In this document: positions 11,057 through 11,179 of the stretch, piece after piece | Layout: each line of letters starts with the position of its first letter | Position numbering within the stretch: position 1 is the first letter of the stretch | DNA from: Enterobacter phage Entb_47 | Sequence record: PV067697.1 | DNA: 11,593 nt | Direction: 5' to 3' (one strand) | Translations under genes and position numbers: made by a program | Notes under the pieces: model-generated | Database searches by the model: none | Told to the model about the DNA's origin: nothing | What the model saw: only the letters and a program-made list of their open reading frames with translations

Positions 11057-11179
11057 TTAGAAATTAATAGAAGTGATAACAGCGAAAGCAATAATAAAAA
11101 TTACAGCTTTCCACATTTTACGCCCTTCACTATAAGCAGGGTTTTTATCAGTGTAAGTTACAACATAATCTTTTTTCAT
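11057..11179 (-). CDS. 40-aa membrane micro-protein (MKKDYVVTYTDKNPAYSEGRKMWKAVIFIIAFAVITSINF) that is not in the supplied ORF track
   Basis: Its ATG overlaps the regulator stop (ATGA) and its TAA stop lies inside the AAGGAG SD of the next gene. It has a single C-terminal TM helix and exactly fills an otherwise 130-nt gap in a gap-free operon. Confidence 0.5.
   Translation of the reverse strand: MKKDYVVTYTDKNPAYSEGRKMWKAVIFIIAFAVITSINF

Follow-up and report, generated by a model that had tools for sequence, protein, structure and literature searches.

Genomic context of the micro-ORF

The stretch of DNA analysed, referred to here as the window, comprises 11,593 nucleotides of Enterobacter phage Entb_47 (PV067697.1). 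A 144-bp inverted terminal repeat is present at both of its ends (1..144 and 11445..11588, 99% complementary), and the window is therefore taken to be a complete linear phage genome. Its G+C content is 37%. By megablast, the nearest group is Astrithrvirus, the ~11.5-kb phi29-like phages of Gram-negative hosts, with 75-82% identity over parts of the genome. The relatives retrieved were Salmonella phages astrithr, Astrid, assan and S.Kent 1-2-1 and Pectobacterium phage DU_PP_III.

All genes between 11382 and 1242 are coded on a single strand. On the minus strand, the order is a 68-aa HTH-like gene, a 40-codon micro-ORF, a 206-aa terminal-protein (TP)-like gene, a family-B protein-primed DNA polymerase gene and a gp16-type encapsidation ATPase gene. 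The ATPase gene is followed by genes for connector, capsid and tail proteins and by an endolysin-like gene. The features relevant to the micro-ORF are listed below.

11445..11588, no strand assigned: right arm of the 144-bp inverted terminal repeat, whose left arm is 1..144
11415..11442, minus strand: candidate sigma-70-type promoter, TTGACG, 16-nt spacer, TG and TATAAT (11 of 12 consensus matches plus extended -10)
11176..11382, minus strand: 68-aa HTH regulator-like gene, first in the operon (HTH_3, E = 0.0016, below the Pfam cut-off; phrog_3 repressor, E = 0.0012)
11189..11194, minus strand: AAGGGA, possible Shine-Dalgarno sequence of the micro-ORF itself
11176..11179, minus strand: ATGA start/stop overlap of the micro-ORF with the HTH gene
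11057..11179, minus strand: micro-ORF, 40 codons plus TAA, phrog_10979 member by translation, profile match and haplotype conservation
11053..11059, minus strand: TAAGGAG, micro-ORF stop fused to the Shine-Dalgarno sequence of the TP-like gene
10423..11043, minus strand: 206-aa TP-like gene, immediately upstream of the polymerase gene
8303..10414, minus strand: family-B protein-primed DNA polymerase gene, downstream neighbour of the TP-like gene
7028..7216: 62-aa transmembrane (TM) protein gene, a separate, genus-wide holin candidate (phrog_4898 'holin', E = 3.4e-5; homologue of Astrid ORF005)
1242..1613, minus strand: endolysin-like gene, 9.4 kb from the micro-ORF

The candidate promoter, recognised by its consensus match alone, precedes the HTH gene and adjoins the right inverted terminal repeat on its inner side. 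In the relatives, homologues of the HTH gene were found upstream of the TP gene wherever the fetched contig extends that far. The TP-like protein gave no match of its own in a Pfam search and was assigned from its position and its homologues; a phi29 p3-like TP has been reported in this phage group (review PMC11476376).

The translated product of the micro-ORF is MKKDYVVTYTDKNPAYSEGRKMWKAVIFIIAFAVITSINF. As the original prediction had it, a 40-aa ORF is wedged between the regulator and the putative TP gene, its start overlapping the regulator stop and its own stop embedded in the Shine-Dalgarno sequence of the next gene. The ATGA overlap (ATG 11179..11177, HTH TGA 11178..11176) can be read directly from the sequence and is unchanged in nine of nine nucleotide haplotypes, and also in the more distant contig L023. 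At the other end, the TAA (11059..11057) runs into AAGGAG (11058..11053), 9 nt before the ATG of the TP-like gene (11043). The stop codon lies within or adjacent to the downstream Shine-Dalgarno sequence in the variants too, where the junction reads TAAGGAG, TGAGGTGA (L060) or TAGTAAGGG (L023). Both junction signals are thus retained in related contigs, in differing spellings.

A further signal, absent from the earlier description of the locus, is the AAGGGA in the last part of the HTH gene, which precedes the start codon of the micro-ORF by 9 nt. A purine-rich motif is kept at this position in the variants (AAAGGA, TGGAG, GTGGAG).

The G+C content of the micro-ORF (29%) is in line with that of the adjacent regulator gene (30%), and composition therefore gives no sign of foreign origin. 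No Rfam family was found over the region, and RNA folding showed nothing unusual (z = +0.45). An RNA element was rejected on these two results.

Evidence that the micro-ORF encodes a protein

The length of the micro-ORF is not significant by itself. In the window, 27 ATG ORFs of at least 40 codons were observed versus 20.7 ± 3.8 in shuffles, and the chance of 39 consecutive sense codons is ~0.036. Such ORFs are common in an AT-rich genome, and the frame could have arisen by chance or serve as a spacer, translated to bring ribosomes to the TP gene, rather than encode a functional protein. The coupling-type arrangement at both ends would suit such a spacer, as would the weak constraint in the N-terminal half described below.

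Homology argues against this. The micro-protein matched the phrog_10979 HMM with E = 1.8e-13, residues 3-38 aligning to profile positions 2-37 of 39. When the family profile was run against 1.84 billion representative proteins, P0001, the 50%-identity cluster representative of the clade and 98% identical to the window protein, was retrieved at E = 9e-20. The profile thereby connects the ORF to annotated proteins of unrelated phages, where the gene stands alone. In the protein database, 21 distinct 40-aa variants from metagenomes were found at 80-98% identity.

Conservation of the frame points the same way. All 40 codons are kept, with zero stops or indels, in the nine nucleotide haplotypes, and the 40-codon length is constant across 30% nucleotide divergence. 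The summed pairwise pN/pS over the nine haplotypes is 0.41 in the frame of the micro-ORF versus 0.92 and 1.00 in the shifted frames, indicating frame-specific purifying selection; neither an unconserved frame nor a substitution pattern of non-coding type was encountered. Between the window and L023, at 69% nucleotide identity, the value is 0.26. The neighbouring regulator and TP genes gave 0.31 and 0.19, respectively.

Because phrog_10979 homology, the profile match and the conservation of length, frame and junctions coincide, the micro-ORF stands above chance expectation and is judged to be a genuine protein-coding gene, as had been predicted. The chance or spacer reading is refuted as far as sequence evidence reaches, and it is given almost no weight.

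Constraint is unevenly spread along the protein. The TM part (codons 25-40) has a pN/pS of 0.31 and the N-terminal half 0.53, and several residues conserved in the family vary within the clade (P14 to H, Q or V; G19 to W; R20 to H, L, N or A). Such weak within-clade constraint on the N-terminal motif could mean that the cytoplasmic motif is of little importance here. Positive selection was considered, as motif residues vary, and was rejected, since pN/pS never exceeded 1.

The gene had been missing from the ORF list supplied with the original prediction, which put this down to a length cut-off. The gene is unannotated in the window because of the length cut-off of gene callers, and the lesson for annotation is that such cut-offs make them overlook what is here a real and conserved gene.

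Predicted architecture of the micro-protein

Two segments of the micro-protein can be distinguished.

11108..11167, minus strand: hydrophilic N-terminal segment, codons 5-24, predicted to be cytoplasmic, with the family motif Y-V-V-x-Y-T-x-x-N-P-A-Y-x-E-G-R-K-M-W-K
11060..11116, minus strand: predicted C-terminal TM helix, codons 22-40, with no residues beyond it (tail anchor), from hydropathy, AlphaFold2 and the pN/pS of codons 25-40

The Kyte-Doolittle maximum (15-residue mean) is 2.53, over residues 26-40. Residues 1-24 have a mean of -1.38 and contain six K/R and three D/E, a net charge of +3. The AlphaFold2 model, for which a 38-sequence family alignment was the input, is one continuous helix over residues 14-39, with residues 1-13 unstructured; the mean pLDDT is 83.7, rising to 93-95 over residues 21-40. 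The hydrophilic N-terminus and single TM helix of the original prediction are thus reproduced by hydropathy and by the model. Given the positive-inside rule and the lack of residues after the helix, the micro-protein is predicted to be a single-pass, tail-anchored inner-membrane protein with a cytoplasmic N-terminus and its C-terminus at the periplasmic face. Since the modelled helix begins, at residue 14, in the conserved N-P-x-Y-x-E stretch, this stretch may serve as a helix cap.

The phrog_10979 family

The family is already catalogued (PHROG 10979, pVOG VOG6014, RefSeq "membrane protein"), and no member has an annotated function; what is new here is a member in an Astrithrvirus-like genome. 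The PHROG label is "membrane protein", in the category moron, auxiliary metabolic gene and host takeover, which is assigned to generic membrane proteins and does not represent tested evidence. No paper on the function of the family was found in a literature search. Both the single protein and the family alignment were searched against Pfam (E up to 10), NCBIfam, PADLOC and PDB sequences, and no meaningful match was obtained.

Short ORFs annotated as membrane or hypothetical proteins of 39-41 aa were matched by tblastn against 50,697 phage records. Six of the matched ORFs were inspected, and in all of them the motif (Y/H)-x-V-x-Y-T-x-x-N-P-A-Y-x-E-G-R-x-M-W-K runs directly into a terminal TM helix. 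Annotated homologues that were aligned come from Salmonella phages SE13 and vB_SE1_KM, Escherichia phage anhysbys and Cronobacter phage Ss1. Named members of the family are:

Salmonella phage SE13 gp07, YP_009845514.1
Salmonella phage BP63
Escherichia phage anhysbys gp097, YP_009985440.1
Cronobacter phage vB_CsaP_Ss1 orf53, AIK67557.1

Residues Y9, N13, Y16, E18 and K24 are at least 90% conserved in the family alignment, and the window protein carries Y9, N13, P14, Y16, E18, G19, R20, M22, W23 and K24. It agrees with PHROG 10979 in three features, namely a full-length HMM match, the size with a C-terminal TM helix, and the juxtamembrane motif. Among the 1.84 billion representatives, 42 family clusters were found; all are 32-58 aa long and never a domain of a larger protein.

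At E ≤ 1e-3, 64 records of isolated phages have a Phapecoctavirus-type copy and 50 a Rosemountvirus-type copy. The carriers are virulent Enterobacterales phages of all three tail morphotypes, in which the gene is stand-alone. Its surroundings differ from group to group. The Rosemountvirus homologues lie among small early genes adjoining RusA, and those of Phapecoctavirus and Seunavirus lie in small-gene arrays. The L025 homologue is found downstream of a 7-deazaguanine gene cluster, that of a Klebsiella siphophage between the tape-measure and tail-tip M genes, and that of Cronobacter phage Ss1 among small genes. No partner gene is conserved beside the homologues across phage groups, neighbours being common only within Rosemountvirus-like phages, and no TP or protein-primed polymerase was seen next to homologues in unrelated phages. 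The closest copy outside the Astrithrvirus-like clade, P0035, is 72% identical, also ends in ...SINF, and sits on an unrelated 1.3-kb contig.

A tblastn search of 72,556 plasmids for family copies gave no match. In 185,579 species-representative genomes, a motif scan, which used a single pattern that diverged copies could escape, gave a chance match only; this lone hit, an 11-residue match in GC-rich DNA antisense to a large gene, was rejected. With no genuine copy found in the plasmids and genomes scanned, phrog_10979 looks like a self-contained micro-gene that moves among virulent phages of Enterobacterales.

Distribution among Astrithrvirus-like relatives

A home-built family HMM was run against all six-frame ORFs of each fetched locus. 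The micro-gene is present in every contig with a polymerase 90-99% identical to that of the window (L009-L020, L023/24, L060-62), and the gene order in these contigs is a 68/69-aa HTH gene, the 40-aa ORF (4-nt overlap), a 206-aa TP gene and a 703-aa polymerase gene. More distant copies of the clade, P0026 (70% identical) and P0028 (63%), have the same gene order on their contigs.

Outside this group, no homologue was detected in any frame of the complete genomes of DU_PP_III, S.Kent 1-2-1, astrithr and Astrid; polymerase identity to that of the window is 82% for DU_PP_III, 73% for S.Kent 1-2-1 and 57% for astrithr. The micro-gene was likewise not found in the TP-gene surroundings fetched from 28 IMG/VR relatives, which extend up to 1.5 kb to either side of that gene; the TPs of these relatives are 34-73% and their polymerases 55-80% identical to those of the window. 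Where the contig of a relative extends to the regulator, the HTH and TP genes adjoin or overlap. The exceptions are L042 and L043, in which an unrelated 53-aa ORF with an N-terminal TM segment lies between the two genes; this ORF had no match in a PHROG search. DNA alignment of the window and L023 to DU_PP_III, S.Kent and L030 showed ~130-150 extra bases in the former two. The breakpoints of this insertion could not be placed by DNA alignment, the flanks, including the TP N-terminus, being too diverged.

As the gene is present where the polymerase is 90-99% identical and absent from relatives in which regulator and TP genes abut, the parsimonious reading is a single recent gain, in the ancestor of a narrow species-level clade. 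The same distribution shows that the micro-gene is accessory and, by this comparison of genomes, that the lineage at large can do without it. It evolves and recombines independently of the TP gene within the clade. In L019, the TP is 100% identical to that of the window, yet seven of 40 micro-protein residues differ, and in L017 the regulator is 96% and the TP 83% identical. At 90-96% identity of TP and polymerase, that of the micro-protein is down to 63-71%.

These observations bear on the proposal, made in the original prediction, that the micro-protein is a functional analogue of phi29 p1 or p16.7 and tethers the TP/polymerase complex to the membrane. The gene immediately precedes the TP-like and polymerase genes in the same operon, in a tight coupling arrangement, and its product would have a C-terminal membrane anchor, as described for p1. 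Both p1 and p16.7 are membrane proteins that bind the phi29 TP (PMC4974454; PMC11476376). Nevertheless, conservation with the TP and polymerase genes across the lineage was not seen in the four complete genomes and 28 IMG/VR TP regions, the micro-gene being missing from all relatives that keep both genes with a polymerase of at most 82% identity. The homologues occur in phages showing no TP beside them, and recombination is independent of the TP, as in L019 and L017. Only ~21 residues would be cytoplasmic, with no coiled coil or DNA-binding domain by AlphaFold2 and hydropathy, and no similarity to phi29 proteins was found in Pfam or PHROG. A replication-organising role is thus highly improbable.

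The alternative of a holin or antiholin, also raised in the original prediction, or of a single-gene lysis-type membrane peptide setting lysis timing, fares little better. The micro-protein is a small phage protein with a single TM segment, as are the single-gene lysis peptides of ssRNA phages, and the endolysin (1242..1613) needs a route across the inner membrane. The micro-gene is promoter-proximal, however, far from the endolysin gene, and is absent from close relatives that must likewise lyse their hosts. No charged tail follows the TM helix. No annotated lysis gene lies beside any homologue, and sequence comparison of the neighbours, which covered the large phages only, gave no conserved partner. 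The micro-protein matched no holin-family model, phrog_10979 being its sole PHROG match and Pfam being empty, and a different TM protein, the genus-conserved 62-aa product of 7028..7216, already matches a holin PHROG. Linkage, architecture and dispensability all speak against a lysis function, which is very unlikely.

For both proposals the outcome follows from the same two facts: the gene is accessory, and its homologues are stand-alone in unrelated phages.

Proposed role

The micro-gene is very probably a real, accessory, horizontally acquired member of phrog_10979. The best overall explanation, to which a probability of about 60% is given, is an accessory gene for a tail-anchored micro-protein with an early host-takeover or exclusion role of the 'moron' type. 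A takeover or exclusion mechanism specifically is a tentative assignment, possible rather than probable; the function class is suggested by context, size and topology. No sequence relationship to described exclusion families was found in PHROG, Pfam or NCBIfam, where phrog_10979 was the only match.

According to this explanation, the gene would have inserted once, recently, at the junction of HTH regulator and TP genes in an Astrithrvirus-like lineage. It would be co-transcribed with the regulator, TP and polymerase genes from the promoter adjoining the right terminal repeat. Its translation would be closely coupled to that of the genes on either side, by the ATGA overlap at its start and the stop/Shine-Dalgarno fusion at its end. 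The micro-protein would be made early, a timing assumed from promoter proximity, and would act at the cytoplasmic face of the inner membrane. A cytoplasmic head of ~21 residues would project from the inner-membrane anchor, and the TM helix and juxtamembrane motif may bind a larger membrane component, belonging either to the host or to a competitor phage.

A variant in which the micro-protein excludes no phage and instead neutralises a membrane-bound host defence effector, or depolarises the membrane and so shuts the host off, is unlikely, if less so than the replication and lysis functions. It would suit a mobile, early, small gene confined to virulent phages, and the faster evolution of the micro-protein relative to TP and polymerase is compatible with an arms race. 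No PADLOC model was matched, a weak test since PADLOC covers defence and not anti-defence proteins, and pN/pS values above 1 did not occur. Nothing separates this variant from exclusion or takeover functions.

It is also conceivable, and unsupported, that the micro-protein takes part in phage-phage interaction. Phanie and similar Astrithrvirus relatives need a helper myophage (PMC11476376), and the Salmonella host on which astrithr and assan were isolated also yielded Rosemountviruses carrying the family, apparently in one study; such a role is conceivable on these two grounds. The regulator/TP junction has been used at least twice by small TM genes, by phrog_10979 here and by the unrelated 53-aa ORF in L042/L043. 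It might repeatedly take up tiny membrane-protein genes acquired from larger phages of the same host cells, and the micro-protein might be a weapon or handle in phage-phage conflict or in helper exploitation during co-infection, a scenario regarded as quite doubtful. If it were true, the fast-evolving cytoplasmic motif would reflect that conflict.

Whatever its mode of action, an 11.6-kb genome, among the smallest of tailed phages, devotes ~1% of its length to a horizontally acquired 40-residue membrane protein, which is retained under purifying selection. The phrog_10979 micro-gene is also carried by >100 isolated coliphages and Salmonella phages. With so many carriers, the signature of selection and a 123-nt gene in a minimal genome, phrog_10979 is therefore a reasonable and cheap small-protein target.

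Comparison with known systems

Like p1 of phi29, the micro-protein is small, membrane-associated by prediction and encoded by a protein-primed phage. The p1 protein associates with the membrane via a C-terminal hydrophobic region, is about twice as long as the micro-protein and self-assembles through a coiled coil. The two have no sequence similarity, and the micro-gene is absent from most TP-bearing relatives. With phi29 p16.7 it shares a single TM helix and a place in the early region of a protein-primed phage. In the p16.7 protein, of ~130 aa, the TM helix is N-terminal and is followed by a coiled coil and, at the C-terminus, by a dimeric domain that binds DNA and TP, an architecture not found in the micro-protein, which has the opposite polarity and no room for a p16.7-type domain. 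PMC11476376 cites the p16.7 structures 1ZAE and 2BNK. How protein-primed replication works is a question on which the micro-protein has no bearing.

Several very small inner-membrane proteins with a single membrane pass act by binding a larger membrane protein, among them the phage proteins HK97 gp15 and T4 Imm and the bacterial regulatory micro-proteins AcrZ, MgtS and MgtR. The two phage proteins are encoded by accessory genes inserted between core genes. The comparison with the micro-protein is of the 'works like' kind only, in size and membrane topology. The tail-gene region is a frequent insertion site of morons, and one phrog_10979 member is located there, directly after the tape-measure gene.

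The closest likeness is to the other members of PHROG 10979. They are 39-41 aa long, as is the window protein within this range, share its motif and terminal TM helix, and are 40-55% identical to it; the motif is less well kept in the window clade than in other members. These relatives belong to phages of 40-150 kb and are usually free-standing genes with their own intergenic spacers, whereas the window copy is wedged by overlaps into the regulator-TP junction of an 11.6-kb genome.

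Mosaicism and the regulator–TP junction

The segment 10423..11382 was compared with the sewage-metagenome relatives that carry the micro-ORF, the 40-codon gene for a protein with a C-terminal transmembrane (TM) helix (clade contigs L009-L020, L023 and L060). These relatives are mosaics, their identity to the window being uncoupled among the HTH-like regulator gene, the micro-ORF and the terminal-protein-like (TP) gene. Nucleotide identities for these three genes, in that order, are 99.5%, 91% and 97% in L010, and 98%, 89% and 79% in L017, while L019 encodes a TP protein identical to that of the window together with a divergent micro-protein. 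Such uncoupling implies that recombination is frequent at gene boundaries in this clade. The 'KYST' type of micro-protein goes together with the 69-aa type of regulator.

A second small gene was found in two IMG/VR contigs, L042 (UViG_3300007150_000007) and L043 (3300007085_000038):

L042 80..241 and L043 445..606, ORF of 53 aa, unrelated to the micro-ORF, with a hydrophobic segment at the N-terminus (MDFLKGMVFMALVFTFVLVGLKSC...)

A PHROG search with the 53-aa ORF gave no match. In L043 it lies at the regulator–TP junction, the same slot as the micro-ORF in the window; contig L042 stops short of any regulator gene. The presence of this unrelated ORF suggests that small genes for membrane proteins insert recurrently into this junction.

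Variation of the micro-protein motif

Codons 13-24 (11108..11143) hold residues that are conserved in the wider family and vary inside the narrow clade: P14 is changed to H, Q, V or R, G19 to W, R20 to H, L, N, A or C, and W23 to L. Changes in the TM half are conservative across the clade. The pN/pS ratio within the clade is 0.53 on the motif side, so positive selection on the motif residues is not demonstrated, and the variation may reflect either relaxed constraint or an arms race.

Possible donors

The micro-protein family is also present in the Rosemountviruses MT074434, MT074438 and MT074444, larger phages deposited in one accession series with the Astrithrvirus-like phages astrithr and assan (MT074429, MT074440). 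These Rosemountviruses, astrithr and assan share an isolation host, Salmonella Enteritidis PT1, and a Salmonella phage cocktail contains both an Astrithrvirus and a Rosemountvirus (PMC13097653). Phanie, a relative of this phage group, requires a helper myophage (PMC11476376), so co-infection with such myophages, and an exchange of genes with them, is plausible. The nearest homologue outside the Astrithrvirus-like clade (L059 472..603, 43 aa, 72% identity) ends in SINF, as does the micro-protein of the window. This homologue, on a short contig of unrelated sequence where it adjoins a 68-aa non-HTH gene, may point to a donor lineage.

Putative lysis genes

Two further genes of the window may bear on lysis:

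7028..7216, minus strand, flanked by the genes for the encapsidation ATPase and the connector, product of 62 aa with a TM segment at the N-terminus
1242..1613, minus strand, 123-aa endolysin-like protein, weak Peptidase_M15_4 match (E=0.004)

The first matches phrog_4898 'holin' (E=3.4e-5) and has a homologue in Astrid ORF005, which is annotated with a TM helix spanning residues 10-32. It is a candidate genus-wide holin, distant from the endolysin-like gene. The endolysin module varies among relatives (window 1242..1613 versus L002 9644..10099 and L001 9334..9783), with a CHAP domain annotated in Astrid and a LytG-like glucosaminidase in DU_PP_III. The lysis gene appears to have been swapped between otherwise syntenic genomes.

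Genome ends and left arm

The outer parts of the window contain:

1..144 and 11445..11588, 144-bp inverted terminal repeat, arms 99% complementary
235..555, 561..791 and 814..1194, plus strand, three left-arm genes transcribed inward, against the direction of the remaining genes

Since the repeat is present at both ends, the window is the whole linear genome; beyond the right arm there are five more bases. A short tandem CCCTAG x2.5 (~11457-11476) is included in the repeat, which is partly similar to the terminal repeats of Astrid and S.Ent 1-35-3. None of the three left-arm genes was matched in the PHROG search. Their counterparts by position are astrithr gp12-gp15, and one of them may encode an SSB like phi29 p5, a protein mentioned for this phage group (PMC11476376).
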